NCBI GenBank assembly: GCA_036172245.1
Contig: JAYWIR010000009.1
Coordinates: forward strand, 1 to 64,000
DNA length: 64,000 nt
Source: Raillietiella orientalis
Lineage: Eukaryota
Reading direction: 5' to 3'
The notes under the pieces are model-generated. The model did not search any database. It was not told where the DNA came from and saw nothing but the letters and a program-made list of their open reading frames with translations. How positions within the stretch are numbered: position 1 is the stretch's first letter; each line of letters starts with the position of its first letter. Below, piece by piece: positions 1 to 59,662 of this stretch. The position numbers were made by a program, and so were the translations under genes.

Positions 1-158
1 GCTGGTCCGACTCGATCGAACTGATCGTCACGAATGTGTACGCCCCAACCTGTGAAAAGAGATAGACCAACAGTACCAGGTTGCTTGAATCCCTCAAGCG
101 CGACTGGCTGGCCAACATGAGCGTGCGCAAGCCTCACCTGATAGCGGGAGATTTCAAT
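1..158 (+). mobile_element. Family B copy 1, APE fragment (host of A1); its 5' part lies outside the window
   Basis: Reads WSDSIELIVTNVYAP..RDWLA..HLIAGDFN, with an in-frame TAG at 63-65. The frame resumes as FNLRLL at 6062. Confidence 0.85.
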
Positions 159-165
159 CGAGTGC

Positions 166-172
166 GGACGTG
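166..172 (+). promoter_or_regulatory. DPE-like GGACGTG at element 5' ends (putative internal Pol II promoter)
   Basis: Also at 16348(-), 23164(-), 27615, 29998, 35911, 41710 and 49629. Matches the DPE consensus RGWCGTG. Confidence 0.55.
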
Positions 173-237
173 TTTTCCTTCGCTCTCGTCTCCGTGCTTT
201 CATCCGCTTCATCTTGGCGTCGTACATTTTGACGACG

Positions 238-2156
238 ATGTTGACCCAACCCAAAGCTACTGAAGTTGGAGGAACAGCATCCGGATCTGCAATCGCGGAA
301 CCGACGGCCGCCTCCACTTCGTCCTTCTCGCCAATGGAAAGGAGATTTGCTGACGTTGCTGCCACAGCAGCCGTCAAAGGGAAACCACTCGACGAGTCGG
401 AGTTGCGGGCATACGTAGCCCAAAGCTATCGACCTGCTCTCCGATATAAGGTGAGTGGTTTTCTTTCTGCGCGCGAAAGGAATCAGTTCAACGATGGACT
501 GACCCGTGTTGGCGTGCGGGAGGAGGACCTTCTCGCCATTATGCCCGTAAAAGACATGGGCTATTTCAAGGTGCGTTGCAAAGACGCTGCACTTGTGCAA
601 CGCTTGCTGCGCAACCCGTTGTCGATCCGTGGCCAGAAGGTCTTCCCGGTCGCCATGGACGACTGATTTGTGGCGGAGATCTTCGACATCGAGTCGGAAA
701 TCTCCGATATTGATATTCGGAAAGCGTTGGCGAAATTCGCCACGGTCCATGCGCTGTGGAGGGTGCGTAGCAACCTCAAGGACTTCCCGTCCATACACAG
801 CGGAGTCGCTGGAGTCCGCCTTACAATGCCGGACCGCCGTCTGCTGCCCATCAAACTACAAGTGAAAGACACGGTCGTTCACCTGCTGTTCGTAAGCAAA
901 GTAAGAACGTGCCAGCAATGCGGGAAGGAGGGGCATTGTTTGGATCAATGCCCCTCTGGAAAATGCCGTTATTGCAAACTATCCGGGAACCAATTGAAAA
1001 ATTGCCCGGATCTATGCCGAAAAAAGGCAGCCGCGGAGCTTCATCTTAAGAAACAAAGCGCGGATAAAAAGAAAAAATCTGCGAAAAATGTGGAGACCCC
1101 ACGGCAGAAATTTTCAAAAAACGCGACGCGGAATGTCGCCCCAAAGCAGCAGGAAACCTCGAACGCGAAGCCCTGCGCGCCCCCTTTCGCGGCAGGGGAG
1201 CCGCAAAAGAAAGGGTGCGGGGAATCCGGGGCAATGGTAAGTCCCCCTAGGCGCAATAGCTGTCCTTCCCAAGCACGCCCGGCTCTTTCGGAGTTCGAGC
1301 AACCGGCAGGGACGTCAATGGACAACGGCGGTAAGTACACTTCCAGTACCGTCAGATCCATTTCTTCACCTCCTGCAGTGGCTGAGAAGCCCAAATCGGG
1401 TAAGAAGGGTTGTGCCGTGTCGACTTCGAAAGTCGGCAAAAAAAAAATCCACGTCGCGATCCAACACTGCGAAAGCGGAGAAAACTCTCACGCCGTCGCA
1501 GTCGGAGAGCAAGCTCTCGACTGGTGCGGATGCCATGCCAACGAAGGGATTGAAAGCCCTTCCGAAGGCAGCGTCCATGACGAGCGTGTCGAAGCCATCC
1601 GAAGTGCTCCCGTCCAAAGACGCGGATGGCTTCAAAGATGGCCATGGAGCACAATCTCCATTTACTGCGCCACGCGAAGTGAGAATCCGTATAGAAGAAG
1701 ACTTCAGCAAAGGTCCCTCGCGCAACTGCGCGTTAGCACCCTGAAAACGCGCGCGCCGGGAAAGCAGCCGTCACCAAAAGCGATGCTCTGGTGACGGAAA
1801 ACGAAAACAGGACAGCTGTCAATCCAGCAGAACCTGTCACTGCTTCGCGGAAGGCCGAAACCCGATCGAACATGCGCCGGTCGGACTCCGAAATGGATGC
1901 CGTTTCGATCACCGAGACGAGGACAACTCGTTCAAAAGCGTGTGTGCGCCGATTAAAAGTAGGCAGCCAGGCAACGCTCGCCGCGAAGCAACGCGACGTC
2001 TCCACGAAACGCGACGGGGTTCAGCCTGGCGTGGACGCATTACATGCATGCAGCACGACAGAGGACGGTGGCGACCGTCCCCTCTAGCCAGTCTTGCTGC
2101 TCGCCGTCTGCTCGCCGGATAAAGCGAGCAAAAAGCCGCCACCTTCCCAGCAGTAA
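238..2156 (+). pseudogene. A1 ORF1 (gag-like, RRM-like region plus 2 CCHC knuckles)
   Basis: CQQCGKEGHCLDQC and CRYCKLSGNQLKNC. Stop at 664-666 and frameshifts. Confidence 0.85.
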
Positions 2157-5100
2157 TTCGGGGAATCGCGTCTTCTCGTCGTCTGTCCGTAACGTGTTGG
2201 AAAGTGAACGGACTACAGAACGACGAGAAGAGGCGATTAGTAGCTAACGCCCTGCGCCCCTTCGAACTCGCGCTCCTGCAGGAGATTCACGTAATCTCTG
2301 ACGAGCAGGCAGCCGAAATTAAGGAGCGCGCAGGCGGAACGCTACATTGGCGGTGCGGCGGCACACACACGTGCGGCGTCGCGTTCCTCGTAAGAGGAAA
2401 AATGGCGGAAGCGGTGCGTAGTGTTCGTTTCGATGACGACGGACGGATAGGCCAGCTTGTCATCAAGTTGTCCGATTCCATCGATTTCGTCGTTACGAAC
2501 GTCTACGCGCCGAGTGGCTCTCGCTACCTCGAAGAAAGAGTAGCCTTCTTTGGTGAGGTGCAGAGCCAGTGGCTCAACAACTCCGGTTTCCAAGTGGCGC
2601 ACCTCGTCGTTGGGGACTTCAACGTCCGCCTGCTCTCCGAAGATTGGAGCCGCCCGAGGGAGCGCGCGCTGCCCATCGAGATGTGCGCGTCCATGCACGC
2701 CGCCAACTTGATGGTCAGCGAACCTGGAATGGAAAGATCGCTCGATCACGTTTTCCTCGATAAAAACCTGCATTCGCGTGTGGGTAGGAGAGGAAGATTG
2801 TTGACTAGGCTTTCTGACCACCACAGGTTGGAGTTTGAGATTCTTCCGCTAGGAAGGGGGCCTCCGTTGCAAAACTGGAGGATGCAGGCATATTGGCTTA
2901 GCCAACCGGAGGGTGCGGAGCATCTACGTGGATACCTCCGAGGCTTTGCCATTCAAGAACTTGGGGACTGGGACGATCTCAAAAGATCTGTCCGCGAGTT
3001 CTGTTGCCAATTCCCCTTGCACCGGCTTCCACGCGGTTTCGGAGAGAATGTGGCCAACAGTAGAGACTTTATGCAGGCCCGCACGTTTTCGAGACGCGCG
3101 GTTGTCGGGCGTCTCGCAGAGTACAAGGCGAGGGCCGAGCGCCAGGTCTGGCAGTCCGGAGCAGCATGCCTGTTGGACGACAAGGGCCAGGAAAGTTTAG
3201 CCCCAGCCGAAGTACGCCGCATTGTGAGACGCTACTACTCCTCTCTGTACGTGGAATTCCCGACGGAGGATATTCTTTCTGAGATACTCCTGTCTCAGGA
3301 TGCTCGTGTTGTCGGCGAGGAGGAACGCGAACGTCACAACGAGCCCTTCACGGCGGATGAATTTTCGTCCGGAATCGCTGGGCTGAAGAGGCGAGAGGCG
3401 CCAGGTGAGGATGGGCTCCCTGCAGAGTTTTCTTAGTGCTTTGATGTGGAGCTGATTCCCTTGATGCTGAAACTCGCGACGCTGATGAGTGAATCCGAAT
3501 ATGTCCCGGATTCCTACCGCTCAACGAAGGTGCGTCTCCTGCCGAAAGGCGAAGACTTGCGTCAACTTAACAACTGGCGTCGGATCACCTTGGTGAACTC
3601 GGACGTCAAGTTGTTTTCCAAGCTGTGGGTCGCGCGGTTAGGAAGTATCGCGGAATCTGTGGTGAGCCCGGAACAAACCTACGCGGTTCCGGGACGATCC
3701 ATGGAGGCGAACATCCTTTTTGCGCGTACATGGATGCAGCTGCAGGAAGTTGTGGCGCAGCAAAGCCAGGCTGCTGCGAAAGTCACTGCCGCAGGCAAGA
3801 AGAGCAGGCGCCGATGGCAGGAGGGAACGCCAGGTGCCTTGGCGGTCGCGGTCGATCTCCACAAGGCGTTCGACTGCGTAAACCAGAAGCTGCTTTTGGA
3901 GCTTATGGAACGCCTTGGGTTCCCGGCGCAACTCCTGCTGTATTTGCGCACGTGCTGGCGCCATGCGCTAACCTGCATTACTTTCAGCGGCTGCCGCGTG
4001 TATGGTATTCCCGTTCGTAGGGGCATCCGACAGGGCGACAGCTTATGCCCGTTGCTCTTCAGCATCTTCTTTGAGTTGGTGCTAAGAGCATACAGGATGA
4101 CGCTGTCTCACTTGCCAAGCTCCTGCCCGGGAACGCCTGCCGTGGCCGCCTACGCTGATAACCTGCTTCTTCTGCTCCCCATGTCCACCACGGCGTCCAG
4201 TGTCGAGGATTTCTTCGACCTGATTCGTCGGGGAGCGGGCATGAGCGTGAACAGAGAGAAGAGCGTGGTCGTTCCTGTGGGTACGTCGTGGAAGGGGCAG
4301 TCCGACTGGATCCGCCTGGGGATCCCCACGGGCGGGTACTTTAAGTACCTTGGCGTTCCGTTGGGCGCTTTCGGCGCAGCCGAAGCGTGGGCGGACTGTC
4401 TTCAGAAAGCAGAGTTGGCCATCAGCCCGTTCTTTAACGGCAAGTTTACCTTGCAGGAACGGGCGACTATTTGGAACACCTTTGTGGCCCCCCTCCTCCG
4501 TCCCCTGTTTTTTGTTTTGGACCCCCCTATGCGGCGAAAAAGCGGGCTAGGTGCCCGCTCAGGAACGCTCTCTGGGGTCCGGCGAGATCCAGGATCCGCC
4601 TTAAAGATTTGTTAGCTCCCCGTCTGGATGCTGGTTTGGGTATCTTGACAATGGAGCGAATCGCACTGCAGGTGCAGTTCCGACTGCTGGCACTGTGTGC
4701 CCAGCTATGGACATCCCCCCTGTGTGTGCCAGCCCGCATTCTCCTGCGGAGATGCGCCGGCAGCGGAGGATTTCTCTCGCTTTTGCCGGGCACTCAATAC
4801 AGGAAGCGGGGTTTCGGGTTTCCATTGCGGCAGTTGACCGCACTTCTGGAAGCTCAATCGTGGATCTTCTGCCGCCCATTAAACTTTGAAGCTTGGCGGC
4901 AGGAGTCTGTTGAATCCTGGGCGGCGTTTCAAGGAATACGCCCTGAAGATCTTCGCCCCCTGCGTCAATTTCTTCCACGATCCTTGGAAGAAGTACTGCA
5001 GGACGAGGTGAAGTTTTCTACCCTGGCTGCCACGCGTCTTGCCGCAGCGCTGTTTGCCCTCAGGGCAAGAAACGACAGTTACCAACCGGCGAGGTGGGAG

Positions 5101-5748
5101 GTTTCCTGCACGATACCGGGAAAAACCAAAATCCTTGGCGCCTGGAAGACGAGTGAGTTGGCGGACGCCGCCACTTCTCGTGTTACTGCAAAGGGACTCC
5201 TCCGGTGGGCAGAAGAACTTGCTGTCACCCCCGAAGAACTTGTAGTCCCTCCACAGTGTATTGACAGTTCGCTGCTCCCCTTTGCTTGGAAACAAGCCGT
5301 GCTGCTTTTTGTTCACTGGAGTTTTCAGTGCAACGAGCGTTGGCATCGTGACTCCGGGGAACTTGCGTCTGCGAACTGCGTTCGGTGCGGATCGACGGAG
5401 TTGATTCCGCACCTACTACTGGACTGCGGTGTCCTACAAGGACTGTGGCGTAGGCTGGCAACAGCACTAATGCATCCCGTGGACACCGCAAGAGACTTTC
5501 TGTGGCGATTCTTCACGCCGAGCGGGCTGTCTCTAAGCGCAAGCATTGCAACCATCGGTTGCATTCGCGCAATAGTTTCCGTCCGCCAGGCGTTGGTAAT
5601 CAACGGACAGCCTCAAGAGGTAATCAGCAAAGCATCCTTCTACATAAGAGCATCCGCTAGATGGCCTCATTTGACAGAGGAGACAAAAAGGAATCTCGCC
5701 GCAATACACCGCCCGTTTACACACCCTCAGCAGCGGCCAACCCGGTGA
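2156..5748 (+). pseudogene. A1 ORF2 (APE-RT-zf-RVT), frameshifted
   Basis: LQE, NVYAP, GDFN, LDH, SDH; APGEDG, DLHKAFD, GIRQGD, YADN, KYLG; CVRCG..HLLLDC. Split over ORFs 2204-3436, 3446-4615 and 4471-5748. Confidence 0.92.
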
Positions 5749-6031
5749 TCATTGCCCTACCCTCCATAAACTAATTTTGTATTTTCTTTTTACACCCGCG
5801 TCCCCATAGGCTCCGGAACATTTGAGGTGCTCATCGTTTAAATCGCCGTGAGTACGGAGCCTAGCCAAAAACCCTTTTCCCTTCCCTCCAGTTTCTGATT
5901 TTTGTTTGTTTCCCCTCATTCCCCCCACGCTGCGAGCGGTTTGTTTAACTGGCCTGCGTGCCGGTAATTTTTCTATGTTCTCTGTCGTTCTCTTGGTTGG
6001 GGACATTGTCCCTGACCAGTTTATTATAATT

Positions 6032-6058
6032 AATAAACGCCCCGGCGTGACCGGGTGA
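6032..6058 (+). other. 3'-terminal AATAAA plus CCCGG/CCGGG hairpin (representative of 11 copies)
   Basis: Also at 9368, 10784(-), 16378(-), 21959, 24686(-), 35866, 39578(-), 47436, 49574 and 55264. Confidence 0.85.
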
Positions 6059-6061
6059 TAA

Positions 6062-9000
6062 ATTTCAATCTCCGTCTGCTAACAGGTGAGCCAGAAACAC
6101 AAGAGAACGCGATGAACGAGTTTTGCGCCGCCATGCGTGCGCGCAACTTGTTCGCGGGTGAGAGGGGAATGGTCCGCAGCATCGACCACGTCTTCCTCGA
6201 CGCTGACCTGTGTTCACGTTTCGGCAAACGGGGGAGGGTTGCGTCGACGTTGTCGGACCATTCCCGGTTAATTTTCGAGATGCGGCCTCGTGACAAGGGA
6301 TTGCCATCCAGGGATTGGCGTCTGCCGGGGGACTGGACGCGACTCTCAGGTGCGAAGGAATACCTTCGCGAATACCTGTGAGGTGTCACGCTCCGGAATC
6401 TCCAGAACTGGGACCTTTTTAAGGAATCGGTATGCGAGTTCTGTGAGCAGTTCCCCCTGGATCGCCTGCCTTCCGGATTCGGCGAGGGTGCTCGCAACCA
6501 TCGGGCCTATTTACAGGCTCGTAGGTACGAGAGAACCCCTAATGTCCGTCGCCTGGCCGAGTACCGCGCCGGGGCCGAACGCCAAGCCTGGCAATCCGGG
6601 TCGGCCAGCTTGCTGGACGACCAGGGCCGGGAATGTTCGTCCCCGGCGTCGGTACGGCATCTCGTGCGGAGTTTCTATTCCTCCCTTTACGCCAGGGAGC
6701 CCCCGGATCGAAACGCCTCTCGGCGCTTGCTTCCGGATGGCGCCCCGGCAACAGGGGAGGAGGAGATGGAAAGCCTCGACGAGCCTTTTACCACCGGCGA
6801 AATTCTCGCCGGTATCAAAAGGCTCAAGAGGCGTAAAGCTCCAGGGGAAGACGGCTTGCCCGCGGAGTTCTTTCAGAGCTTCGCGGAAAAGCTGGCACCC
6901 CTGCTGCTTAAGTTGATCAGGCTGATCCGAGACGAAGGCGATGTTCCCGCCTCGTTTCGGTCAGCCAGAGTGAGGCTCCTTCCGAAAGGGGGAGACCTCA
7001 GGAATTTAAAGAACTGGCGTCCGATCACAATCGTGAATACGGACGCCACGTTGATAGCAGGGCTATGGGCTTCGTGTCTGGGGCAGGTGGCAGAATCCGT
7101 AATTAGCCCGGAGCAGACTTATGCTGTTCCCGGGCGAAGTATGGATGCCAACCTCTTCTTCGCAAGCACATGGGTACACCTGCAGAGAAGAGAGAAGAAA
7201 GGGATAGGGAAAGTCGGCAACCCCACATTGGGGCCGCCAGCCGGGCTGGAAAGGGACCCCCGGGCGGGGAAAGGGGCCCTAGCGCTCGCAGTCGATCTCC
7301 ACAAGGCGTTCGACAGTGTAGACCAGGAACTCCTCTTCGAGCTCCTGGGTCGCATGGGCTTCCCACCCTCCCTGATTTCCTACCTGCGCTCTTGCTGGCG
7401 GAATGCGATGATTACCGTCTGTTTCAGTGGACAGAAGGTGTATGGCGTGCCGGTGCGGCGGGGCATAAGGCAGGGCGATAGCCTCAGCCCCCTGCTCTTT
7501 AGCACCTACTTTGGGTTAATGCTGAGAGCGTACAGGGTGACTTTGGCCCCCTTGCCGAGCTCGTGCCCCGGCACGCCCGCCGTAGCAGCGTACGCCGACG
7601 ATCTTCTGCTCTTGTTGCCAATGTCCACCCTGGCGAAAGCGGTCGGAGACTTCTTCGATCTGCTCAGCCGCGGGACCGGACTGAAGGTTAACAGGGCGAA
7701 GTCGTCGGTTGTGCCAATAGGTGCGGCGTGGGCAGGGCAGCAGGACTGGGTCCGTCTGGGGATCCCCACGGCGAGGTGCTTCAAGTACCTTGGTGTGCCG
7801 TTGGGGGACTACTCCCCTGCGGAAGCGTGGTCCAGCTGCCTCCAAAAAGTCGAGACGGCGATCGGCCCGTTCCTGGAAGGCAAGTTTCACTTGCCGGAAC
7901 GGGCCGCGGTTTGGAACGCCTTCGCGGCCCCCATCCTCCGCCCTTCGCTTTTCGTTTGCCCTTCCACCGTGGAATCCAAGAAGAGGATGAAGGACCTCCT
8001 CCGTATCGCCCTTTGGGGCAAGGGGAGGCCCCGATTCCCACTGAAGGACTTGTGCGCTCCGCGTCGGGACGGCGGTCTTGGCCTCCTGACGCTGGAGCGC
8101 GTGGAGAAGCAGCTGCGGTGGCGAACCGTCGCCATCGCAGCGAAGATGTGGTGCACCCCATGGTGCACTCCAGCCCGCCTCCTGGCCAGCAGTATGTCCC
8201 GGTGCGATGGACTGGCGTCTTTTCTTCTCAGCCGTGTCCGCAAGCTGCGAAGATGCGGCCTACTGCTCGGGCGCATGGCAACATTGGCCAAGGAGAACAG
8301 CTGGATGGTTTGCTGCCCCGCCAACTCCCCCGTTTGGCTGGAGGAAAATATTGGAACGTGGGCAGTGGTTAACCAGACAAGCTACGAGACGTGGAATCGT
8401 CTCCGATGCAGCCCCTACGACCGCTGCACGCTGCGGAATCTCCTGAAGAGTCCAGCAAGATGCACGTGGGCAGAGACGACCTCCCTAGCTACGGCGCTGC
8501 CTTTCCTGAAAAGGGCACTTCACAGCAGCCGGACGCCAAGGTGGCAAGTCTCCTGCTGCATCGAGGGACGCGAGAAGTTGATCAGCGGCTGGACAACAGG
8601 AGAATTGGCCGACGTCACGACCCCGAGCGTCCAGCCCCGAGGACTAAGAAGATGTGGCGAGCTGCTGGCCATCCCTATGGATGTGCTGAAGTGGCCCCCG
8701 CTTCTTCAGGAATCCAGGATCCTGCCCCTTAAGTGGAAAGAGTCGGCGTTGCTTTTGTTGCACTGGGGTCTACCCTGCAACACACGCCGCTCTCACTGGA
8801 CAAGAGGAGTTGTGGATCCTGCGTGTGTCAGGTGCGGAGAGCGGGAATCGCTCTCCCACCTTATTGTGGACTGTGCTGCCCTTCGTCCCCTTTGGGAACG
8901 GTTTGGGACGATCCTCGGTCTCCCAACGGGCAGTTCCCCTAGAGACGTTCTTCGGCCCCTCATAGTGGAGGACGCCCTGCATCCAGCCGCAGCCCTTGCA

Positions 9001-9395
9001 GCCTCGTGCTGCGTCCGAGGCATCGTGGCGGCATGGAGCGACACCAACAAGGAAGAAGTGGGTGAACACGCGAGGGATGTCATCCCATATGAACAACGCT
9101 TCTTGCGGAGAGCTGCTGGATGGCCCCAACTGGGGAATCTACGGATGGACCTCGAGGGCTTCCTTCAACGGATGGGCCCTCCTCTCTGCGAACAGTGATC
9201 CCTTCCCTGCCCCCCAACCTCACTTGTTTGTTTGCCTTTTTGTTTTTATTTTTTTTTTCCCCATCCCCTTTCGCTGCCGGGGAGTGCCACGCCGGGCTGC
9301 GTCCCGGTAGGTCCCGTGCATAAGGCCGTGAGCGGGGCCTGGTACCGCAATTGTAGAGTTTTTTATAAATAAACGCCCCGGGCGTATCCGGGTGG
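6062..9395 (+). mobile_element. Family B copy 1, 3' part (rest of APE, RT, zf-RVT, 3' UTR)
   Basis: Continues the frame of 1-158. Contains the 862-aa ORF 6610-9198. Ends AATAAACGCCCCGGGCGTATCCGGGTGG (9368-9395). Confidence 0.92.
6610..9198 (+). CDS. RT plus zf-RVT portion of B1 ORF2 (open, but the APE end is disrupted)
   Basis: KAPGEDG, WRPIT, DLHKAFD, RQGDSLSP, YADD, KYLG, CVRCG..H...C. Confidence 0.85.
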   Translation: MLDDQGRECSSPASVRHLVRSFYSSLYAREPPDRNASRRLLPDGAPATGEEEMESLDEPFTTGEILAGIKRLKRRKAPGEDGLPAEFFQSFAEKLAPLLLKLIRLIRDEGDVPASFRSARVRLLPKGGDLRNLKNWRPITIVNTDATLIAGLWASCLGQVAESVISPEQTYAVPGRSMDANLFFASTWVHLQRREKKGIGKVGNPTLGPPAGLERDPRAGKGALALAVDLHKAFDSVDQELLFELLGRMGFPPSLISYLRSCWRNAMITVCFSGQKVYGVPVRRGIRQGDSLSPLLFSTYFGLMLRAYRVTLAPLPSSCPGTPAVAAYADDLLLLLPMSTLAKAVGDFFDLLSRGTGLKVNRAKSSVVPIGAAWAGQQDWVRLGIPTARCFKYLGVPLGDYSPAEAWSSCLQKVETAIGPFLEGKFHLPERAAVWNAFAAPILRPSLFVCPSTVESKKRMKDLLRIALWGKGRPRFPLKDLCAPRRDGGLGLLTLERVEKQLRWRTVAIAAKMWCTPWCTPARLLASSMSRCDGLASFLLSRVRKLRRCGLLLGRMATLAKENSWMVCCPANSPVWLEENIGTWAVVNQTSYETWNRLRCSPYDRCTLRNLLKSPARCTWAETTSLATALPFLKRALHSSRTPRWQVSCCIEGREKLISGWTTGELADVTTPSVQPRGLRRCGELLAIPMDVLKWPPLLQESRILPLKWKESALLLLHWGLPCNTRRSHWTRGVVDPACVRCGERESLSHLIVDCAALRPLWERFGTILGLPTGSSPRDVLRPLIVEDALHPAAALAASCCVRGIVAAWSDTNKEEVGEHARDVIPYEQRFLRRAAGWPQLGNLRMDLEGFLQRMGPPLCEQ

Positions 9396-10783
9396 CAACG
9401 CCGAAACCTGTAGGGAGACGGTTCAGGGGAAACTGGTCGCAGAACTCGCGGACTGAGCTCTTCAAGTGGTCCCAGTCCGCGAGCGACTGCATATGGAAGC
9501 CTTGCAGGAACGAGCGAAGATGTTGCGCTGCTCCTGCGAGGCGCAACGAGTCCCCTGGCAAACGCCACGCTGTGGAGGGTGGACCTTTACCGCGCGGGTG
9601 TATTTCTAGCGCGAGCCGTGGATGGTCGGAAAGTTCGGATGGCACTGCCCCACGATTTCCCACCCGCGAACACAGGTGGTTGTCGAGGAACATGTGGTCG
9701 ATCGTCCTCTCCGTCCCGGCGTCACCGGCCAACAAGTTGCGCGCGTGCATGGCAGCGCACATCTCGTTGACCAGCTGTGCGCGAATGTCGGGCGCACCTG
9801 CCAGCAGGCGGACGTTAATGTCCCCGGCAATGAGGTGCGCCTTTTGCATGTCTGCTTCGGCCAGCCAATCTCGCCGCAGGCCTTCGAAGAACGCAGTGCG
9901 TTCCCCGCGCCTGTGGCTTGTGCCGGGCGCGTACACGTTGGTCACGACGAGGTCGATCGCGTCGGACCACTTGTCGACCAGCTGCCCGATTTGACCTTCC
10001 CCGTCGAAGTGCACGTCGCGCAGCGCATTAACGACGGCTGGCTTCAGCATGAAAGCCACACCGCGGGTGTGGTCTCTCCCGTTCTCGTATATGAGCCGCC
10101 CGCCTGCGATCCGTTCGATTTCTTGGGCCTCCCCTGCGTGGAGCACGTGCGTCTCCTGCAGAATCACCAGGTCGAAGTCCCGCAGGCTGGCGGCCACTTC
10201 TCTCCTCTTGCCGTCGTCGCGCAACCCGTTGACGTTCCAACAGATTACGCGCAGTCGCCGGCAGGAGGAGAGTCCACGCGTTGGTGTGTTTATTGTGCTT
10301 GCTTACCGTCCTCCGCCTGCTGTTCAGCAGGCGGGAGTTGTGTATCCATTGCGACGGGCTGCTGCTCGCAAGGAGGCTGTCCGTCGGTGGTTGTGGTGGT
10401 GGTTGGAGGATCCTGCTTGGCCAGGGACGTCTCCGGCGAGGAGTCGCGAGAACTCGCGGACATCGCCTCCCCGTCGTCGTGGTCCGACCGCATTTCCTCC
10501 TCCGCCGGTGGAGGTGCGGAGCGCCGCGGGTTGCCTACCTTGCGGCCCGCTTTGCGCTTCGGGAGAGCGACAGCCGGAGCGTTGCCGGGTTCGGCTTCGG
10601 ACTCGGAAGTCTTCGGTCCTTTCACCTCAGCCGGACGCCTCAAGGCCTTCTTCTGGGCCTTGGGAGGCTGCTGGAGCATGGCTGCCAACTCTTCCGCCGC
10701 CTTGTTGAAGTCCCGGTCGTCGCTGCTCACGCTGGGCTCGCGACTTTGTCGCGGCATCGGCGTTCGCGCGTCGGCGGGTTGTT
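9396..10783 (-). mobile_element. Internal fragment (ORF1 C-terminus plus APE), probably element F, cut by B1 at RLPTGFG and by C1 in ORF1
   Basis: ORF 9220-10224 has LQETH, NVYAP, GDIN, IDH, SDH. ORF 10290-10757 is an ORF1 tail with the AAEELAA motif. Confidence 0.8.
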
Positions 10784-11039
10784 CACACCCGGATGTGCCG
10801 GGGCATTTATTTCATAGAAATAAAATTACAGAAAAATGTCGCGTGGCGAACTTGAAGGTTCACCACTCCAAAACAGCTTGCTGGTCACCGGCTCCGTGCC
10901 GGAGAGGTCCTTCCGATGCGCGGGGATGGGAAATAAAGAAAAACAAAAAGAAACAAAAAGTTCAAATGTGGGGGGGGGGAACAAATGTTCTAGGGTTGGG
11001 AGGGAAGGGAAGGGATCACGGTGCGCGTGGAAAGGTCCT

Positions 11040-14596: not shown

Positions 14597-14604
14597 TGAT
14601 GCGT

Positions 14605-16272: not shown

Positions 16273-16377
16273 CTCTGCCCAGGAACAACCGCTCACAGCT
16301 GAAAACCCCGAAAACACGCGCGAGAAAAACGCGGAGCACCACAAAAGCACGTCCACCCTCTCAGGCGGCGGGTTGTT

Positions 16378-19253: not shown

Positions 19254-19352
19254 AGGAATTTCTGCCTGTCAACGGCCGCAAAACACACACGAAACACCAG
19301 AAAAGAAAAACTCCCTATCCACGGAGCGCACAACAATTGCGTCCGCCCTGCA
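18217..19352 (-). mobile_element. Element F, 5' UTR plus ORF1 N-terminus
   Basis: ARAWSAV..GYNPALLYKVGNLYSP, CGNC..GHC..C, CPTC..GH..C. 5' motif CAGGGCGGACG near 19350. Confidence 0.82.
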
Positions 19353-35895: not shown

Positions 35896-35903
35896 ATTTC
35901 AAT

Positions 35904-45246: not shown

Positions 45247-45252
45247 TCGACT

Positions 45253-49601: not shown

Positions 49602-49616
49602 TAACGCCCAATCCCC

Positions 49617-52600
49617 GCTGTGGTGAGCGGACGTGCTTTTCCTGCGCTCCGCCTGCGTGGCAAAGCGAGTGTTTTTTCTTCTTGAGTGATTTGTGGGTGC
49701 ACATCGTCGGTGTCCGATGGCAGCGTTGCCAGAGGACACCGCGATGGAAGTAGGCGTGATGGAGGCTTGTTCGTCCCCACAGCCTACTGGATTAGGGGCA
49801 TGCGCCCCGGAATCGTCCCCGGCGACGCCGAGGTCATGGAGCGCCATGGTGGCCGCGCCTAGCGTGGAAGCCATGGCCGAGATGGAAGCCTACAAGAAAG
49901 CGGGGTATAAACCCTCGCTAGTCTACAAGGTAGGCAACCTTTTCGATGGGCGAACTGCACGCGCCTTTACGAAGGCGCTGCAGAACGCCAATATTTTTGA
50001 AAAAGATCTCGACGGCCTCTGCGTCCTCAGCGGCGGGCAGCGGGTCGAGGTGGTATGCAAGGATATCACCTTGGCCCGACACCTGATCACCGACCCGCTG
50101 ATCGTTGATGGTCGGAAGATCTTGCCGATAACGATGGACCGCTCGGTGGTGGTCCATCTCACTGGGATCTCAAGTCGCATGACGAGGTCAGCGGTTCGAG
50201 AACAGCTTCAAAAGCACGGAGAAGTGCACGCGTTGTGGCCGAAGTCCACGATTTTCCAAGGCTACAATAGCCTTTTTGGAGGTCAAGCTGCGGCGCGTAT
50301 CACAGTAAAAGAGGGTGGTGCGCTTCCCCAGAAGCTGGAGGTCTGCCAAGAAGCGGTGGACCTCATGGTACGTGGGGAAACGCCAATTTTGTGGCTACTG
50401 CAATGCAGTGGGGCATCTACGAAAAAGGTGCCCGAACATTGTGTGCCACCTATTCGGCGAAAAGGGTCACGTTCGGCGTGTGTGCCCCAAACGCCCCACC
50501 CCGGTGCCCCCTGCCGCCAAAAAGGCTCAGGGAAAACGTGGAAAGCTGGTAGAAAGACCAACTCGCGAAAATGGCCGTTCCGAACTGCCAGCCTCCCTTC
50601 CTCCCGTACAGACGTCGGAGGAAAGAGCTGTCTTGAACGCGGAAATGGAGGAAGGTTGGCAACTGGTTCAGGCCAGAAAAGAAAAAAATAAAGAAAAAGT
50701 GATGCCAGAAGAAAAGTCGCAGAAGAAAACTGCCGGCAACAAGAAAAAAGCCACGCCGCTTTCAAAAAAAAAACAACTCCGCGAATGCTCGGTGGCACTG
50801 GAACCCTAAGCCGTTCCTGCCGAGTCCGCCCGCGGCAATGTTCGCGGAACAGCTGATGCGGACGCGATGAATACTCGCGTAGACAAGCCCATTCTACGTT
50901 TAGAGGGTGAGACGCGAGACTCGCGCGCCGACAGCCAGGACGACGCGCTCGATAAAGTCGCAGAGGAGCCCGCGGCAACGGTCGCCGCTGGCGAAGACGC
51001 GGCCTTCGAGAAAGCGGCCGAGGAGCTCGCAACAACGGTCGCCGCTGGCGAAGACGCGCCCTTCGAGAAAGCGGCGGAGCTCCCAGCAACGCTCGTCGAG
51101 CGCGAAACCCCGTCGCGCAAGGGCGTACGCAGGTCGGCTCCGACGAACATGGCCCCCGCAGGTGAGTGCGACCTCGGGGCCGGAAGCGGATCCTCCTCCT
51201 CGGAGGCACCTCCAGGAAGTCGGGACGCAAGTAACAGAAACCCAGGAGGCGCCTCCCCTCCACCAGCGAGGAGAAACCGGAAGGAAGCGGCAGCGTGGGA
51301 ATCCCGGAGGGGGAACACCCACGCCCGGAAGCCATCGAGTCGGCCACCCCCATGGAGGAGGGTGAGCAGGGGGGTGAAGTCCTCCCTGCAGTCGCGAAAC
51401 CTGAGCAGCCCGAACCCATGGAGGAGGGCGAACAGGTAGGCGCGACTCCACCTGCGGGTGATCCGGCCGACGCGGCGGCACCGATGGAGGAGGAAGAACA
51501 GGTGCCTTCAGTACCTGTCCCCCCTCCCCCTCCACCTAGCGTCCCGCCCCAGCAGGTGGCCGACGCATCATCGCCGTTTTCCCAGGACTGACACCTGGGC
51601 TCGCCAGCCGCCGTCGTATTCGCGCGGCCTGTTGTAACGTCAACGGGCTGCGCGACGACGGCAACAGGCGAGATACGGCCGACACCCTGCGTGAGCTCGA
51701 CCTGGCGCTGCTGCAGGAGATCCACGTGATTACCGCGGCAGACACCCAGAAGATCGAGACGATCGCGGGGAGTCGGTTGTATTGGCGATGCGGCCTCCGC
51801 AACACCTGCGGGGTCGCGTTCTTCGTGAAGCCGGCCATCGACGCTGCCGTAAAGGGCGTGCGGATTTTTGACGACGGTCGGATCGGTCAGCTGATTCTCA
51901 GCTGTTACGACTCGATCGACCTAATCGTCCCAAACGTGTATGGTCCCAGCGGCAAACAGGGGTACCGCGACCGCACCAGGCTGCTGGAAACCCTGAAGCG
52001 CGACTGGCTGGCGGATACCAATGTGCGAAAGGCTCACTTGATAGCGGGAGATTTCAATCTCCGCCTGCTAAGAGGTGAGCCTGAAACACAAGAGAACGCG
52101 ATGAACGAGTTGTGCGTTGCCATGCGTACGCGCAACTCGTTCCTCCCGGATTGCCAGGATGATATTCGAGGTTATGTCTCGCGACAAAGGACTCCCGTCG
52201 AGGGCCTTGCGGCTGCCTGGGGAGTGGACGCGGCTCTCAGTTGCGAAGGAACACCTTCGTCGATTTCTGAGAGGCGTCACCCTCCGGAATCTCGCTGACT
52301 GGGACCTCTTTAAGGAATCGGTCCGCGAGTTCTCCGAGCAGTTCCCCTTGGAACGCCTGCGCCCCGGATTTGGCGAGGGCCCTGGCAACCATCGGGCCTA
52401 TTTACAGGCCCTCCGGTACGAGAGAACCCTCAACGTCCGTCGCCTAGCAGAATACCGAGCCGGGGCCGAGCGCCATGCCTGGCAATCCGGGTCGGCCAGC
52501 TTGCTGGACGACCAGGGCCTGGAACGCTCGGCCCCACCCGCGATCAGGCACCTCTTGCGACGGTTCTACTCCTCCCTCTACGCCAAGGCACCCCCAGAGC

Positions 52601-55291
52601 GTGATGCCTCGCGGCTCCTGCTTCCGGACGGAGCTCCGGCAATAGGGGAGGAAGAAACCATTAGCCTCGACGAGCCTTTTAGCACCGGCGAAATTCTCGC
52701 CGGTATTAAAAGGCTCAAGAGGAGGAAAGCTCCAGGGGAGGACGGCCTGCCCGCGGAGTTCTTCCAATGCTTCGCGACAGAGTTGGCACCCCTGGAGCTT
52801 CAGTTGACCAGGCTGATCGGAGACGAAGGTGGCGTTCCCGCCTCGTTTCGGTCAGCCAGAGTGAGGCTTCTCCCTAGGGGAGGAGACCTGAAAACACTGA
52901 ACAATTGGCGTCCTGTCACAATTGTGAACACGGACGCCAAGCTGATTGCTGGGCTGTGGGCTTCGCGTGTAGGACAGGTGGCAGACTCCATAAGTAGCCT
53001 GGAGCAGACATACGCTGTTCCCGGGCGAAGTATGGATCCCAACCTGTTCTTGGCGAGCACATGGTTCCATATCCAAAAATGTCACAGAGAAACAGTGACA
53101 AGGATTGGCAACCCCACTTTGGGGCCGCCAGCTGGGCTGGGAAAGGACACCAAGGCAGAGAAGGGGGCCCTAGCGATCGCAGTCGATCTGCCCAAAGCGT
53201 TCGATTGCGTGGACCAGGAACTTCTTCTGGAGCTCCTGGATCGCATGGGCTTTCCGGACACTTTACTGGGTTACCTACGCGCCTGATGGCGCAATGCGAT
53301 CATTAACGTATTTTTCAGAGGACAGCATGTGTTCGGCGTACCGGTAAGGCGCGGCATCCGGCAGGGCGACAGCCTGAGTCCCCTACTCTTCAGCACCTAT
53401 TTCGAACTGGTGCTGAGAGCATACATGGTGACATTGGCTGCTTTGGAAAGCTCGTGTCCAGGTACGCCGGCCGTGTCGGCGTACGCTGACGATCTTTTGC
53501 TCCTGCTGCCCTTGTCCGCCTCGGCTTCGGCAGTCGAAGATTTCTTCGACTTGTTGAGCCGTGGGACAGGACTACAGGTGAACAGGACGAAGTCATCGCT
53601 GATTGCGGTTGGTGCTACGTGGGCAGGACGACCTGATTGGATCCGCATGGGGATCCCCACGGACAGCTACTTAAAGTACCTCGGCGTTCCGTTGGGAGAC
53701 TTCTGTCAGTCAGAAGCCTGATCAGGTCGTCTCCAAAAAGTGGAGTCAACGATCGGTCCGTTCCTGGAAGGCAAGCTTCACTTGCCGGAACGGGCCGCGG
53801 TGTGGAACGCGTTCGCGGCCCTCCTCCTTCGCCCTCTGCTTTTTGTTTGCCCTGTACCCCGTGAACTGATATAAAGAACAAAGGACCTCCTACGCATCGT
53901 GCTGTGGGGCGGCGGGAGGCCTCGTGTGCCTTTAAAGGATTTGCGCGCTCCACGTTGGGACGGAGGTCTTAGCGTTCTGACGATGGAGCAAATGGAAACA
54001 CAGCTGCGATGCCGCACCCTAGGCATCGCTGCAAAGACGTGGAACACCCCCTGGTGCGTCCCGGCCCGCATCTTCGCCAACCGTGTATCGAGGACGCAAG
54101 AACTAGCGTCTTTCCTTCTGTGCCCCGGTCGGAACGTCAGGAGATGCGGCGTTCTCCTTGGGCGCCTGGAATCCCTGGTGAGAGAGAACGGTTGGACGGT
54201 ATGCAGCCCCGCCAACTCCTCCGCTTGGCTGGAGGAATCCGTTGGGACGTGGGCCAAGCTGAACCTCCATACTGGACGTGAATGGAACCGCCTTGGACTC
54301 GGCCCCAACGCCTGCTGCACCCTACGGACCACTCTGGAGTGTCCCGCCAGGAGCACGTGGGCAGAGACCACCCCTTTGGCTTCGACGCTGCCCTTCCTAC
54401 GAAGGGCTCTAACCAGCGGCCGGACGCCGAAGTGGCACGTCTCCTGCCGGATCGCAGGCAGGAAGAAGAAAATGAGCCGTTGGACCATGGGTGAACTGGC
54501 AGATGCCACGATCCCGAGTGCCTTCCCGCGTGGACTTGTTAGATGGGGCGAGCTGCTCGGCATCCCGACGGATGACCTGAAGTGGCCCCCAGTATTAATC
54601 GGATCCAGGCTTCTCCCGCTAAAGTAGCAAGAGTCGGCAGTGCTCCTGTTGCACTGGGGTTTACCATGCAACGCGCGCCGCTTCCACTGGACGCGAGGAA
54701 GTGTAAGCCCTGAGTGTGCCACGTGTGGGGAGCGGGAATCGCTCCCGCACCTTCTAGTTGACCGTGCTGCCATCCGACTAATGCGGGAACGGTTCGGGAC
54801 GACCCTCGGGCTCCCAATGGGCAGCGCGTCCAGAGACGTTCTTCGGCCCCTCTTCGTGCGGAACGCCCTGAAGCCCGCCGCAGCCCTCGCAGCCCTCTGC
54901 TGCATCCGGGACATCGTGGCGGCCTGGAGCGACATTATCGACGAAGGAGTGGATGCCAACGGGAGGGAAGTCATCCCGTATGCTGTGAGCTTCATGCGAA
55001 GTGCTGCGAGATGGCCCCATCTGGGACAAACGCAGAAGGACCTGGAGGGCATCCTGCGAAGGATGGGCCCTCCTCATTATGGATAGTGATCCCTTCCCCT
55101 ACCCCCAAACTCCTTTTGTTTTCCTTTAATTTATTTTTTTTTGTTTTCTCCCAAGCTGCGCTCCACTGCCGAGGAGCGTCACGCCGGGCTCCGTCCCGGC
55201 GTCCCGGCAGGTCCGGTGTTGTGCGGCCTTTAGTGGGGCCTCGTACCACGTTTTTGTAGTTTCAATAAACGCCCCGGGCGTACCCGGGTGG
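49617..55291 (+). mobile_element. Family B copy 3, full length, decayed and mosaic
   Basis: Same 5' end as B2 (GGACGTG at 49629). ORF1, APE with uninterrupted GDFNLRLL, RT, zf-RVT. 3' hairpin 55264-55291. Confidence 0.92.
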
Positions 55292-57571
55292 CATCCCCAA
55301 ATCCCCAGGGCAAGCGGTGCACAGGGAACTCCTCGCAGAACTCGCGGACCGAGGTCTTCATGCCGTCCCAGTCTTGGAGATTCTGGAGGATGAGCCTCCC
55401 AGTACTTGGCAGAGATGTTCCGCGGCACCTCAGATGCGCGTCCAGTCCCCGAGCAGACGCCACGCCCTTGATGGTGGTCCTTTGTCGCGAGGCATAACCT
55501 CGAATATCAACCGGAAATGGTCCGATAGCGTCGACGGAAGTTTCCCTCGTCTGCCGACCCGTGGGCACGGGTCGGCGTCAAGGAAGACGTGGTCTACGTT
55601 TTAAACTATTTCCGATAGGTCCCCCAAAAAGTTGCGCGTGCGCACAGCAGCGCACAGCTCGTTGGCTGCGTCTTTTTCCCCGCAAGGCACACCTGAGAGC
55701 AGGCGGATGTTGAAATCCCCACCGATCAGATGCACTTTGCGTACGTTTGTATCCGCCGGACAGTCGTGCTTCAGGGTTTCGAGGAACCGGGAACGTTCCC
55801 GTACCCGCATCCTCCGCTCGGAGCGCACACATTGGTCACGACATCGTCGATCGAGTCGGACCACCTAAGGATGAGCTGGCCAACCCGACTGTCCTTGTTG
55901 AAGCGTACGTCCTTGACGAAGGCGGGGACTGCTGGCTTCATAAAAAAGGCGACGCCACAGGTGTTGCGAGCGCCGCATTGCCAAAACAGACGACCACCTG
56001 CAATCCTCTCGATCTCCTGGGCGTTCTCCGCGGTGATCACGTGGATCTCCTGCAGGAGCGCCAGTTCGAAGTCGCGCAGGGTGTCGGCCGTATCCCGCCT
56101 GTTGCCGTCGTCGCGCAGCCCGTTCACGTTCCAGCAGGGTACGCGGATCCTACGCCGACAGGCGAGCCCAGGTGTTAATCCTGGGAAAGTGGCAATGGGG
56201 CTTCGCCACCTTGTCGGGCTGGACGCTAGGAGGAGGGGGTGCGTCGCGCACCGCGTCTCCCTCCTCCATGGGGGACGTGTCTTCGTCAGGGCCGTGCAGA
56301 GGAACGGGCGGTTTCACCCACCTGAACTTCCTCCTCCATGGGGGTCGCCAGCTGCACGGTGTCGAGAAATGAGAGATTCCCACCCTCGCCTCCCATGCTG
56401 CCGGCTTCCCCCTCGGGTGCCAGTTCATCCTCCTCCTTGATCCGTATGCGCCTCCTGGGATTCTGGGACTTGCGTCCCGTCTTCTTTGGTGGCGCCTCCG
56501 TTGAGGAGGACGCACTTCCGGCATCCGGTTCGGCCTCACCTGCATCCGGAGCCTTCCCCGCGGCCGGCCTTCGTAAGCCTTTCCGGGAGTTCTTCTCACG
56601 GCCTTGCAGTTCTGCCTCGAGTTCTTCCACCGACTGCTGGAAGGCGGCCTCCTCGATCGCGTCGAGCGTGGCGCGCGGTTCCCCCTCTGTTTCGCCAGAG
56701 GGTTCACCATCGAACGTCGCGGCTTCGGCGGACGCGAGGGGGGGGATTGCTCCCCCGGTGGCGGCATCGGGTGCCTCCACACGTTCTAATTTTACCGAAC
56801 ACGCGCGGAGCTTTTCGCGGCACGGTTTTTCGCGCTGCGTTTTTGTTTTCCCCGCGCTTCGTTCGGGACTCCAGGGCTTTCTTCTGGGCTGTACCGTCTG
56901 CCAGCCTTCGCCGTCGCCAGCGTCGTCGGGAGTGCTCTCAACCGACGTTTGCTGCGATGGCTTAGGGACTGGCATCTGGCTCCTTACGGCCTGCTTCATG
57001 GTATTCGTCTCTCCCACCCGTTTCCCCTTTGCCTTTTTGGCAGCGGGAGGGACCGGGATTTCTCGTCTTGGGCACACCTTGCGGATGTGGCTCTTGTTTC
57101 CACATAAGTGGCATTGGATGTTTGGGCACCGTTTTTTTAGATGCCCTGTAGCATCGCAATGGCCACAATATTTGGGCTTTCCCACGTACCAAACATCGAC
57201 TTTTTCTTCGCCGATATTCAGTTTGTGGGGAAGCCCACCATTCTCCAGTAGTGTGACGCGGGCAGCGGCCATCCCACTGAATAGCTTTCCGTACGTTCGG
57301 AACACATTGGGTTCGTCCCAATACGCGTGCACTCTACTGTGTTTTGACAACTCCTCATGGACGCTGGTTTTGTCCATTCGGAGTGATACGCCCGTGAGGT
57401 GGACCACGACGGAGCGGTCCTCCGTCACAGGGAAGATCCTGCGGCCGTCCACCGTAATAGGGGTGTTCAGCAGTGGCTGCGCCAGACTTGCCTCTTTGCG
57501 TGTCAGCTTAACTCGCTGGCCCCCACTAAGGAAGGATAGGCCTAAAAGGTCCTCCTCCCTCACGTTCAACC
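55292..57571 (-). mobile_element. Element K (most of ORF1 plus APE up to RLPWGFG), probably the 5' half of G
   Basis: CGHC..GH..C, CHLC..SH..C, WNVNGL, LQEIH, GDFN. Ends at the motif where G begins. Confidence 0.85.
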
Positions 57572-58625
57572 TTTGGTTTTTTTTGTGTTTCTTTAGGTTT
57601 TTTGTTTGATACGACTTTCCAGCCTTCCTCTTCGGCAGTTGGCTCAGAAGTCTCCTTTTGGGGCTCCTGCTCCTTGTGCACGACTTCTTCTGAGGTCTGC
57701 TGTTGGTCGCTCGTTTTATTTTCTGCCTTCTTCCCCTCATTTGTCGAAGGGGCTGAAGGCGTTGTCGCGGCGTTTTTCGGGCACACAGCACTAGTGTGAC
57801 CCTTAAAGCCACACGTTGGGCATGTGGCGTCCGGGCATCTCTTTTTGAGATGACAAAACGTGTTGCACACCCCACAGTATTTTTCCTTCCCCACGTACAG
57901 AGGTCAACGAGCTCGTCGTTGACTTCCAGCTTGTGGGGAAGTTCTTTGTTTTCGCGGAGAGTTACGCGTGCGGCAACTCGCCCACTGAATGCGCCTCGAT
58001 AAGTAAAGGTGTTGGGCTTCGACCACATCGCGTATATCTCCGCGAACTTGTTGATTTCAGTGCGGATGGCTTCGTCGCTCATCCGCACCGTTGTACCGGT
58101 TAGGTGGATCACCATGGAGTGATCCACCGTGTGTGGGAGGAGATTCCGCCCTTCGAACGGAACGGGCGTGCAGAGCAGTTTGTGCATGAGCGCTGCATCT
58201 CTGCAGATGAGCTCCGCGAACTGCCCCCCGCTCCGAACCGAGAAGCACAGAATCTCCTCGTCAGAGATACCCATCCTACGGATGGCGTTTCCAAATTTCC
58301 GCGTTGTAAGCGGAGAATATAAATTTTCTATCTTGTAAACGAGGGCAGGGTTGTAGCCCTCCTTTATGTAGGCCTGTACTTCGGCGGCCACGTCCGGCGG
58401 AGCCGCCGCGGCCACTTTATTCCATGCCCTCGTCGGGGCGGCGGGGGCCGATTTTGTGGTGGGGCATGACATTACATCCATGGGTTGAGGACACGTGGGT
58501 CTCACGCCTCCCGTCGCAGGTGCTGAGGCGTCTTCAGGCATTGCTGCCTTCCAACGGCCGCACTTCCACTGGATCTGCTTTCTTGTTTCGTTCAAGGGAG
58601 CTAGTGAAAAACGTGTCGCGTTTAA
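57572..58625 (-). mobile_element. Element N, 5' UTR plus ORF1 N-terminus (F-like family)
   Basis: TRAWNKVAAAAPPDVAAEVQAYIKEGYNPALVYK; knuckles CGVC..CHL..C and CPTC..GH..C. Confidence 0.82.
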
Positions 58626-58639
58626 AACTCCTGTTCGCC

Positions 58640-59662
58640 TTTGCTTCTTTGCCAGGTTAGGGTGGGTCGGGACCCGTGCAACGTAGGCACGGACTATGGT
58701 GATGGAAATGGGAGCAAGGAATAGCCGGATAATCCGTTACCATGGATGCCGAATCTTGGCCCCGGACCTCCCGCGCATGCTGGAGGTTGATTGTTGACTT
58801 GCCGGTCAGAAGACCTCGAAGGAGCTGTTGCAATCGCCTTCCGCAGGTTACAAGCAGGAATGGCCCTAGTCGATCGTTCCTCACTCCCATGGACAGTCAG
58901 CTCGGGTTTCTCGCCTCCGCAGTAATGTGCGAACGCGGCTGTTTATCCCATCAGGCAAGCTCTTTGCGATCGCCCTTACCTTGTTCTCTACCACTTGTCG
59001 AGAACGGAGTGTTCCCGTGGGATCCAAGGCAGCGAAGGCGCGAAATGGAAGTTTCCGCGTTTTCTTCCTTTCTGTGGGACGGGTCGGTGGGCTACCGCTT
59101 CCGTGGGAAGGCAACGCGCGAGTGCGCGCTCACGAGTGGGCAAGGCGAGGGCGACGGAAAATCGTCTGTCGAGGACAGCGAAGTCCTCCTGAACCGTGTA
59201 TGAGCTTTCTCGACGCGCATGCGAAGTGTCTTCTTCCGCTCGCAGGCTGCAGGCTTTTGCTCCCTTTTCGTGCACCTGTTTCCGAAGGTCGGATGCGTAT
59301 TTCAGCGACCCCGCGTTGGCTGCTCAACCCTGACATCGCGGATGGGCAGTTGCTCCGGAAACGGCATCTTCCGCGTTAGTGTGCTTTGCGAGCTCGTGTG
59401 CATCGGTCTAAGTGCTCCCTCTGCGCGAGGAACACGGTGCTTTTTTTTGTCCACGGTGAGAACTCCCTTCAACATGGAGGGCTTCGAGCGAGAGGGTATC
59501 TCCAAAGGACAGAAAGAATGCATTTGGAAACGGAGGGCTTGCTAGAGGAAGACGCAAGCACATTAGTGCACTTGTCGATCTCCTTATGGAATCGTTTCTG
59601 TCCAACATGCAATTCTTAGTTTCAAATTGGTTTTCTCATCTTCAATAAACGCTCCGGGCCAT
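58640..59662 (+). mobile_element. Older, diverged 3' end of a related non-LTR element
   Basis: RHLPR*..RARVHRSKCSLC resembles the zf-RVT segment. Ends AATAAACGCTCCGGG (59644), where the GC content drops. Confidence 0.45.

Follow-up and report, generated by a model that had tools for sequence, protein, structure and literature searches.

The known safe targets of site-specific long interspersed nuclear elements (LINEs) are ribosomal DNA (rDNA), telomeres, small-RNA genes, microsatellites and transposons of other classes. In host repeats, R1 and R2 occupy 28S rDNA, and SART/TRAS and HeT-A/TART/TAHRE are found at telomeres. The Tx1 families are reported to use several kinds of target: Tx1 is placed in the piggyBac-type element Tx1D, Keno in U2 small nuclear RNA genes, Kibi and Koshi in microsatellites, crocodilian Tx1-Mar in Mariner-N4_AMi, Tx1-8_Crp and Tx1-4_AMi in retrotransposons with long terminal repeats (LTRs), and Tx1-9_AMi in Harbinger (PMC4494074). 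For target-specific insertions mobilized by Tx1, the same text reports tandems that sandwich a target-site duplication (TSD). Zepp of Coccomyxa and Chlorella and ZeppL of Chlamydomonas form clusters of L1-type LINEs that target existing copies (PMC8226300, PMC3446292, PMC9940879). Plant LTR retrotransposons nest family-specifically in particular regions of other elements (PMC6911290). The window analysed here comprises 64,000 nucleotides of Raillietiella orientalis (contig JAYWIR010000009.1, positions 1 to 64,000). Positions 1–59,672, with a GC content of ~58%, are filled end to end by non-LTR retrotransposons of ~10 lineages that encode an apurinic/apyrimidinic endonuclease (APE) and a reverse transcriptase (RT). 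This nest was probably built by repeated target-primed reverse transcription (TPRT) into earlier copies, the APE of at least two families recognizing short sites in the coding sequence of relatives; a probability of roughly 0.68 is assigned to this reading.

Family A recurs at the codons of the APE motif GDFN. A full-length copy, A1 (160–6061, plus strand), lies within an H-type element, H1, on the same strand. The APE part of H1 up to GDFN precedes it (H1a, 1–159, including the left TSD copy; tblastn, reference residues 116–167), and the part from GDFN to the 3′ end follows (H1b, 6062–9398, with a 938-aa frame open at 6382–9198). The 9-bp TSD ATTTCAATC stands on both sides of A1, at 151–159 and 6062–6070. 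The host site reads ...GGGAG-ATTTCAATC-TCCG..., which represents the GDFN codons, and A is inserted in sense. A second full-length copy, A2 (29,992–35,895, plus strand), has an open first reading frame (ORF1) and an ORF2 with one in-frame stop. It occupies the identical nucleotide of another host, B (27,603–29,991, plus strand), which consists of an H-type 5′ end, ORF1 and APE to GDFN and is 90% identical to the H-type element H2. A3 (35,905–39,577, plus strand) follows A2 head-to-tail, with exactly one 9-bp copy of ATTTCAATC between the two (35,896–35,904). H2 holds an uninterrupted GDFN site at 52,051–52,059, an empty A target, and two of the five exact GATTTCAATC sites in the window are occupied. 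The GDFN codons of A itself (GACTTCAACG) differ from the target site at 3 of 10 bases. An initial sequence-only reading of this DNA had proposed that several families recur at the same codon of different hosts in a fixed orientation, and A1 in H1, A2 in B and the A3 tandem bear this out for A.

H-type elements recur at a second site, the G-F-G codons of the linker, in antisense orientation. The 3′ end of H1 meets the minus-strand element T1 at CGCCGAAACC, the antisense of these codons; the adjoining part of T1, which is D-like, runs from the GFG cut back into ORF1 (T1a, 9399–10,771, minus strand). The duplication made by H-type elements is ~12 bp long and reads CYCCAAATCCCC, or CGCCGAAACC in the second host. 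Copies of ~12 nt with the form C[TGC]CC[AC]AATCCCC, the antisense of GGGGATTTGG, are found at the 5′ end of B, in the spacer between H3 and H2, and at the 3′ end of H2. H3 (47,466–49,604, plus strand) is an H1-like 3′ part from KAFD-8 (8 nt upstream of the RT motif KAFD) to the 3′ end and is probably the remainder of B. H2 (49,617–55,294, plus strand) is full-length and follows the 12-nt spacer 49,605–49,616, so that this tandem likewise sandwiches one target-site copy. The 12-nt copies join the complementary halves of one minus-strand element. The first half, G, is H2-related and extends from its 3′ end to the linker GFG (24,686–27,602, TSD copy 27,591–27,602); the other, G′a, extends from GFG (TSD copy 55,295–55,306) to ORF1 residue ~130 (55,295–~57,570). 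The H1–T1 and H2–G′a composites are 74% identical while their long frames are still open, and are therefore separate insertions. The H1 and H2 events involve different subfamilies and different hosts, with the codons hit and the antisense orientation alike in both. The recurrence in fixed orientation that was claimed at first reading for several families is thus established for H-type elements at GFG, at two independent sites.

The third tandem belongs to family D, in ORF1 of T1. D is full-length (10,782–16,365, minus strand). Its companion D′ (16,376–18,216, minus strand) is a 5′-truncated copy, 97.6% identical to D, which begins at the RT YADD codons. The two lie head-to-tail with one spacer, the 10-bp sequence CAACCCGCCG (16,366–16,375), which is also the 3′ flank of D in T1 ORF1 (10,772–10,781). 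The remainder of T1, its 5′ end with a degenerate leader at 19,347 and ORF1 up to the motif ACSV, lies beyond D′ (T1b, 18,217–19,357, minus strand). The 5′ junction of D′ falls 12 nt past the Cys codon of this motif. The 3′ end of E, an A-related element present from ORF2 residue ~392 to the 3′ end (19,358–21,988, plus strand), cuts ORF1 of C′ 14 nt past the same Cys codon (ECSVV). C′ consists of a C-alpha-type 5′ leader and part of ORF1 (21,989–23,175, minus strand; 75% identical to C). A, H and D thus each have clean termini, a TSD and a tandem whose units, arranged head-to-tail, are separated by exactly one copy of the target site.

The termini themselves are readily recognized. All lineages share a 3′ end composed of AATAAA, a hairpin with a 5-bp stem and GTG-NNAA; poly(A) is absent. 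This motif has 11 copies in the window and a degenerate one at 59,644. A compensatory change is seen in one of the five stem pairs, so the stem is conserved in sequence and unproven by covariation. A 5′ leader of ~30 nt, GGACGTG-YTTT...GCTC, is also common to the lineages, its GGACGTG-YTTT lying 5–12 nt from the first base. Twelve matches to GGACGTG comprise eight 5′ leaders and four internal occurrences; the leader-bearing 5′ ends are at 160, 27,603, 29,992, 35,905, 41,704, 49,617, 16,365 (minus strand) and 23,175 (minus strand), and two further leaders, at 19,347 and 58,619, are degenerate. The leader is conserved although the ORF2s of the lineages are only ~50% identical, and may act as an initiator or promoter, or as an RNA signal at the 5′ end. 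According to the sequence-only reading every terminus with a resolvable flank abuts another element. Of 22 termini, 21 adjoin either a target-site spacer or a further element, and it is only the outermost 3′ end (~59,672) that meets low-GC DNA.

The positions of internal breakpoints are strongly clustered. Seventeen of them were placed, with approximate coordinates, on a generic 5.6-kb element and compared with a uniform null in 200,000 simulations. Six pairs lie no more than 2 nt apart, against a simulated mean of 0.12, and none of the 200,000 simulations reaches six. Six breakpoints fall inside one 60-nt window, a concentration reached by a single simulation in 200,000. One coincident pair, formed by the two A sites, may lack independence. 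Taking junctions and tandems together, there is good support in A and H for sequence-specific insertion into the ORFs of relatives, and for D it is probable. For the C-alpha type, which provides two 5′ junctions only, a fixed target is possible, and for G, E, T1 and F, as single instances, it is unsupported. The original proposal that the relatives' own ORFs serve as the target is thus supported for A and H, likely for D and unsupported for the last four.

Six breakpoints lie within about 50 nt of KAFD. The 3′ end of F, a mosaic element present from the 3′ end as far as a point 8 nt upstream of KAFD (39,578–41,703, minus strand), cuts A3 at KAFD+11, antisense. C-alpha (41,704–45,245, plus strand; 5′ leader, ORF1, APE and RT to ~KAFD+40) meets F with its 5′ end at KAFD-8. 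The 5′ end of C′ meets F′ at ~-9 (boundary 23,175–23,183), just upstream of KAFD; both meetings are antisense, and their exact positions may be off by a few bases. F′ (23,176–24,685, plus strand) comprises RT from ~KAFD-9 to the C-terminal Cys-His motif, where it is cut by the 3′ end of G. C-alpha-type 5′ ends lie 3–9 nt upstream of KAFD, antisense, in two cases. C-beta (45,246–47,465, plus strand) is an A-like 3′ half, its RT core 86% identical to A, and its 3′ end meets H3 at KAFD-8 in sense, with the junction sequence ATTTCCAT. The C-beta flank ATTTCCATA shares 7 of 9 bases with the A site; its insertion therefore looks near-cognate to that site and not KAFD-directed. The last two breakpoints, C-alpha at ~KAFD+40 and C-beta at +6, are the ends of one internal join. 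This join is marked by a duplicated 10-mer, TTCGACTGCG, at 45,246–45,265, and ORF2 is thrown out of frame there; the duplication looks like an end-joining footprint near KAFD. C cannot be read as a single element with inverted RT halves on its flanks, since it is a C-alpha/C-beta chimera.

Several observations weigh against sequence-directed insertion. All junction evidence comes from one window, and in no copy are both ORFs intact, the longest surviving frame having 938 codons. Many sites are vacant: linker GFG sites are occupied in two of nine cases and empty in seven, and A sites that match perfectly are unoccupied in H2 and in D (GDFN site at 14,128). G, E, T1 and F each sit at other, single-instance sites, among them the C-terminal Cys-His motif of F′ for the G 3′ end and ORF2 residue ~392 of E for the T1 5′ end. 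The KAFD breakpoints are heterogeneous, consisting of two 3′ junctions at different offsets and on different strands, two 5′ junctions and two deletion ends, and homologous exchange likewise begins at KAFD; KAFD as a dedicated target is accordingly not supported. At the nucleotide level the sites rank at the 67th to 90th percentile of 12-nt windows for conservation (three-family alignment without C). Target sites had been described as conserved coding motifs, and they are catalytic or otherwise conserved at the protein level, but their nucleotide conservation is moderate. A metagenome scan with the 3′-end motif gave eight loci, all in high-GC contigs and without similarity to ORF1 or ORF2 of the window, which are chance bacterial matches. 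Finally, A1 and A2 are 94.7% identical and their 150-nt visible flank is identical at 145 positions (H1a against B 29,833–29,982), so that a single insertion, duplicated afterwards within its H–A block, may underlie both A-in-H junctions. Even so, a second hit on the A site is needed because of the A2–A3 tandem.

One alternative is that rearrangement after insertion, whether by segmental duplication, ectopic recombination, gene conversion or template switching at conserved stretches, made the recurrent junctions without any target specificity. Positions 1–6070 and 29,833–35,904 align as a single block, flank included. Exchange is also evident elsewhere: H2 (53,160–54,060, plus strand) and G (~26,810–25,910, minus strand) share an RT-core tract of ~900 nt at 92–100% identity, with more than 400 nt at 100%. 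The tract begins ~35 nt upstream of KAFD, and outside it the two elements, which are inverted, are ~70% identical; it represents either gene conversion of recent date or a recombinant module common to both. F joins an RT core that is D-like (93%) to a C-terminal part of another kind, H2 is mosaic relative to B and H1, C is a chimera with a 10-nt duplication, and G″/G′a is an in-frame ORF1 chimera. Recombination does not, however, create complete termini, with 5′ leader and 3′ hairpin, at an internal codon flanked by a 9–12-bp duplication. The H1–T1 and H2–G′a composites, with frames open, are too diverged to be neutral copies of one event, and the tandem spacers consist of target sequence. Descent of shared junctions from one duplicated event is thus possible for A but not for H, and rearrangement as the general explanation is quite improbable.

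Regional targeting of the Zepp type offers a different account, in which elements home to a chromatin domain (e.g. a centromere or an island of transposable elements) with weak nicking preferences, and the recurrent junctions are partly duplicated. L1-type Zepp and ZeppL build GC-rich nests by targeting existing copies (PMC8226300, PMC3446292). The present nest is similarly a GC peak beside DNA of 40% GC, and both the unique sites of G, E, T1 and F and the many empty perfect sites speak for such homing. What it does not account for is that hosts no more than 74% alike are hit at one and the same nucleotide, with the TSD and the orientation repeated, the three tandems that sandwich a TSD, or the coincidence of breakpoints within elements, far above the uniform null. 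Regional and sequence targeting are compatible with each other; regional homing in place of sequence recognition appears unlikely. An assembly artefact, in which repeats were collapsed or chimerically joined and some junctions are not real in the organism, might be suspected where repeats are so dense and copies are 94–99% identical. The junctions are nevertheless coherent: TSDs match on both sides, the complementary halves of split elements are present and the nesting is hierarchical. Most joined partners are moreover less than 80% identical and not confusable by assemblers, which leaves artefact very improbable.

Insertion at short sites in relatives, the favoured reading, suggests the following mechanism. 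(i) APE would nick at the site's left edge, on the bottom strand. (ii) The 3′ hairpin RNA would serve in priming. (iii) A second nick 9–12 nt away would make the TSD. (iv) The site regenerated by the TSD could then be hit again, giving tandems. C-beta, being A-like, would have used the near-cognate site ATTTCCATA, and further hot spots would lie around KAFD and at the CSV motif of ORF1. Insertions break the ORF2 of the target because GDFN and KAFD are catalytic motifs. Each insertion would thus disable a relative and bring in new sites, and the nest would grow while host genes are spared. A bolder proposal is that the families form a guild of site-specific LINEs that cut short sites within each other's catalytic-motif codons (GDFN, KAFD), linker or ORF1. 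Family A would hit H-type elements, H-type elements would hit D-like and H-like ones, and a D-like mosaic would hit A, in a self-extending nest. The members would be mutual parasites in a LINE niche, with no need for a host repeat as safe harbour. This proposal is tentative, with the odds somewhat against it, and the ‘reciprocal’ targeting and ‘killing of competitors’ of the sequence-only reading are likewise conjectural.

The coding content identifies the elements. Ten of the 20 longest stop-to-stop frames contain Exo_endo_phos, RVT_1 or both (Pfam), and a single 898-aa frame holds both Exo_endo_phos (E 2e-15) and RVT_1 (E 3e-22), as do other copies. One ORF2 query (window 31,959–35,582, 1207 codons, one stop) locates 31 ORF2 pieces over both strands by tblastn; ORF1 pieces also map on both strands and adjoin them. 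Two CX2CX4HX4C knuckles can be read directly in ORF1 frames of 535–600 aa; the Pfam zf-CCHC match is marginal (E 2.7e-4), and two other ORF1s lack any Pfam match. A CxxC...H...C motif is visible after RT in ORF2 translations, where zf-RVT scores 21–24 bits, below the gathering score of 27.5. Short in-frame tandem repeats are present at the N-terminus of C ORF1 (42 nt, 41,816–41,927) and in the linker of H2 ORF1 (57 nt, 50,949–51,106). The absence of LTRs, the defined 5′ and 3′ termini and the TSDs of 9, ~12 and 10 bp are those of APE-type LINEs. D′, E, H3, F and F′ start internally, some of these having been split by later insertion and not truncated. RT-core identity sorts 11 copies into six lineages at 80% or more, and C-alpha/C′, T1, G″, G′a and Z represent additional lineages by 5′ parts only, which makes the first count of about 10 families a fair one.

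The nearest solved protein is human L1 ORF2p (E 1e-45), with R2 proteins at ~1e-14, in a PDB comparison that is coarse, as solved structures exist for the L1 ORF2p and R2 groups only. An assignment to the APE- and RT-bearing LINEs of the L1 superclade (L1/Tx1) is supported by these sequence comparisons. ‘Tx1-like’ may be used of behavioural resemblance only: A, H and D display the Tx1 hallmark, target preference with TSD-sandwiching tandems, within one window. An exhaustive search of 1.84 billion cluster representatives returned one 619-aa metagenomic fragment, 56–67% identical to every family, and nothing else above 36%, so the lineage is almost unsampled. The protein-atlas clusters matched are generic RVT/Exo_endo_phos; among ten matches looked up, those named are a sea-turtle and a pseudoscorpion protein. 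The sea-turtle protein was set aside, its high score arising from four repeated RT pieces at ~30% identity.

The nest can be reconstructed with six or more levels of insertion. In one proposed chain, G would have inserted into F′/Z; B and H2 into G at GFG; A2 and A3 into B at GDFN; F into A3 at KAFD; and C-alpha into F. In a second, F′ would have received C′, C′ received E and E received T1, which in turn received H1, itself the host of A1, and D′ and D. The arrangement of 39.5–47.5 kb would be accounted for by a single deletion running from the KAFD region of C-alpha to that of an A-like copy in B. Gene conversion between H2 and G and the mosaic exchange of RT modules would be later events too. 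Beyond G′a lies G″ (57,571–58,628, minus strand), a T1-like 5′ leader and ORF1 part. The fusion of G″ with G′a is in frame, giving an 816-aa open frame (56,286–58,736, minus strand) with a duplicated RRM-like/CCHC unit. An 877-aa frame (16,635–19,268, minus strand) similarly fuses T1 ORF1 to the RT of D′, beginning exactly at the YADD box. These two frames across junctions are due either to chance in GC-rich DNA or to chimeras formed in frame.

The outermost component, Z, is a tentatively delimited GC-rich tract of ~1 kb (58,629–59,672, plus strand) that ends in the degenerate 3′ motif beside DNA of 40% GC. It resembles nothing else in the window, gives no Pfam match in three frames, and low-stringency tblastn of C-terminal ORF2 parts against it gave nothing better than E ~0.03. 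An 8-residue SPLLLC-like motif and the geometry hint that Z is possibly the 3′ remainder of F′; a TSD was looked for at the F′–Z link and not found. Z may be the tail of the oldest, founder, element. The extent of the nest was first put at ~59 kb of wall-to-wall elements ending at 59,662. This is confirmed by a GC content of 0.53–0.62 in each 2-kb bin to 60 kb, against 0.40 at 60–64 kb, by self-similarity reaching 58,562 and by the degenerate 3′ motif at 59,644–59,665, from which the end is now placed at ~59,672. Within the nest, tRNA genes, Rfam RNA genes and microsatellites were sought as alternative real targets and none was found. The low-GC flank carries a satellite-like array at 60,079–60,311, ~400 nt from the nest border, with periods of 19–21, 28 and 49 nt and roughly 10 copies of a unit approximating CACAGACCTATAGGGATGA. 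Pfam finds no match in three frames of the flank at 60,301–61,004.

LINEs whose fixed targets are the coding motifs of other LINEs are not described in the literature searched, in which subscription journals and Repbase Reports were thinly covered and the figures of Tx1 targets lay outside coverage. Novelty as first claimed was nonetheless too strong: Zepp and ZeppL nests (PMC8226300) and transposon-targeting Tx1 elements (PMC4494074) are already on record. If true, the present reading supplies a sequence-level mechanism for the seeding and growth of nests made up of LINEs alone, for example the Zepp-type clusters, of which some are centromeric. Competition between transposable elements would become directly testable on defined 9–13-bp sites. 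The elements would also provide natural APE domains with new long specificities, bearing on the understanding, and possibly the re-use, of targeted retrotransposition.

The locus can be compared with several described systems. As with Tx1 families, an APE-type LINE occupies a multicopy sequence, often a transposon, always at one position and in one orientation, with TSD-sandwiched tandems; unlike in those families, it is coding motifs in related LINEs that are hit here (GDFN, GFG and the ORF1 site), and several families at one locus may target each other. Family-specific nesting is shared with plant LTR retrotransposons, whose insertion is integrase-based and regional in preference, whereas the sites here are nucleotide-precise APE sites with TSD-sandwiched tandems. 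L1-type insertion into existing copies and a localized GC-rich nest of tens of kilobases are common to Zepp and ZeppL. Zepp nests as described consist mostly of 3′ fragments of one family in tandem-like arrays tied to centromeres; this nest differs in its ~10 lineages, full-length copies, precise coding-site targets and fixed orientation per family. R1, R2 and the telomeric LINEs resemble the present elements in site-specific TPRT, a multicopy ‘safe’ target and head-to-tail arrays, and HeT-A/TART/TAHRE also in the sharing of one niche by several LINE families. Their targets, however, are rDNA and telomeres, and not the catalytic codons of other LINEs.

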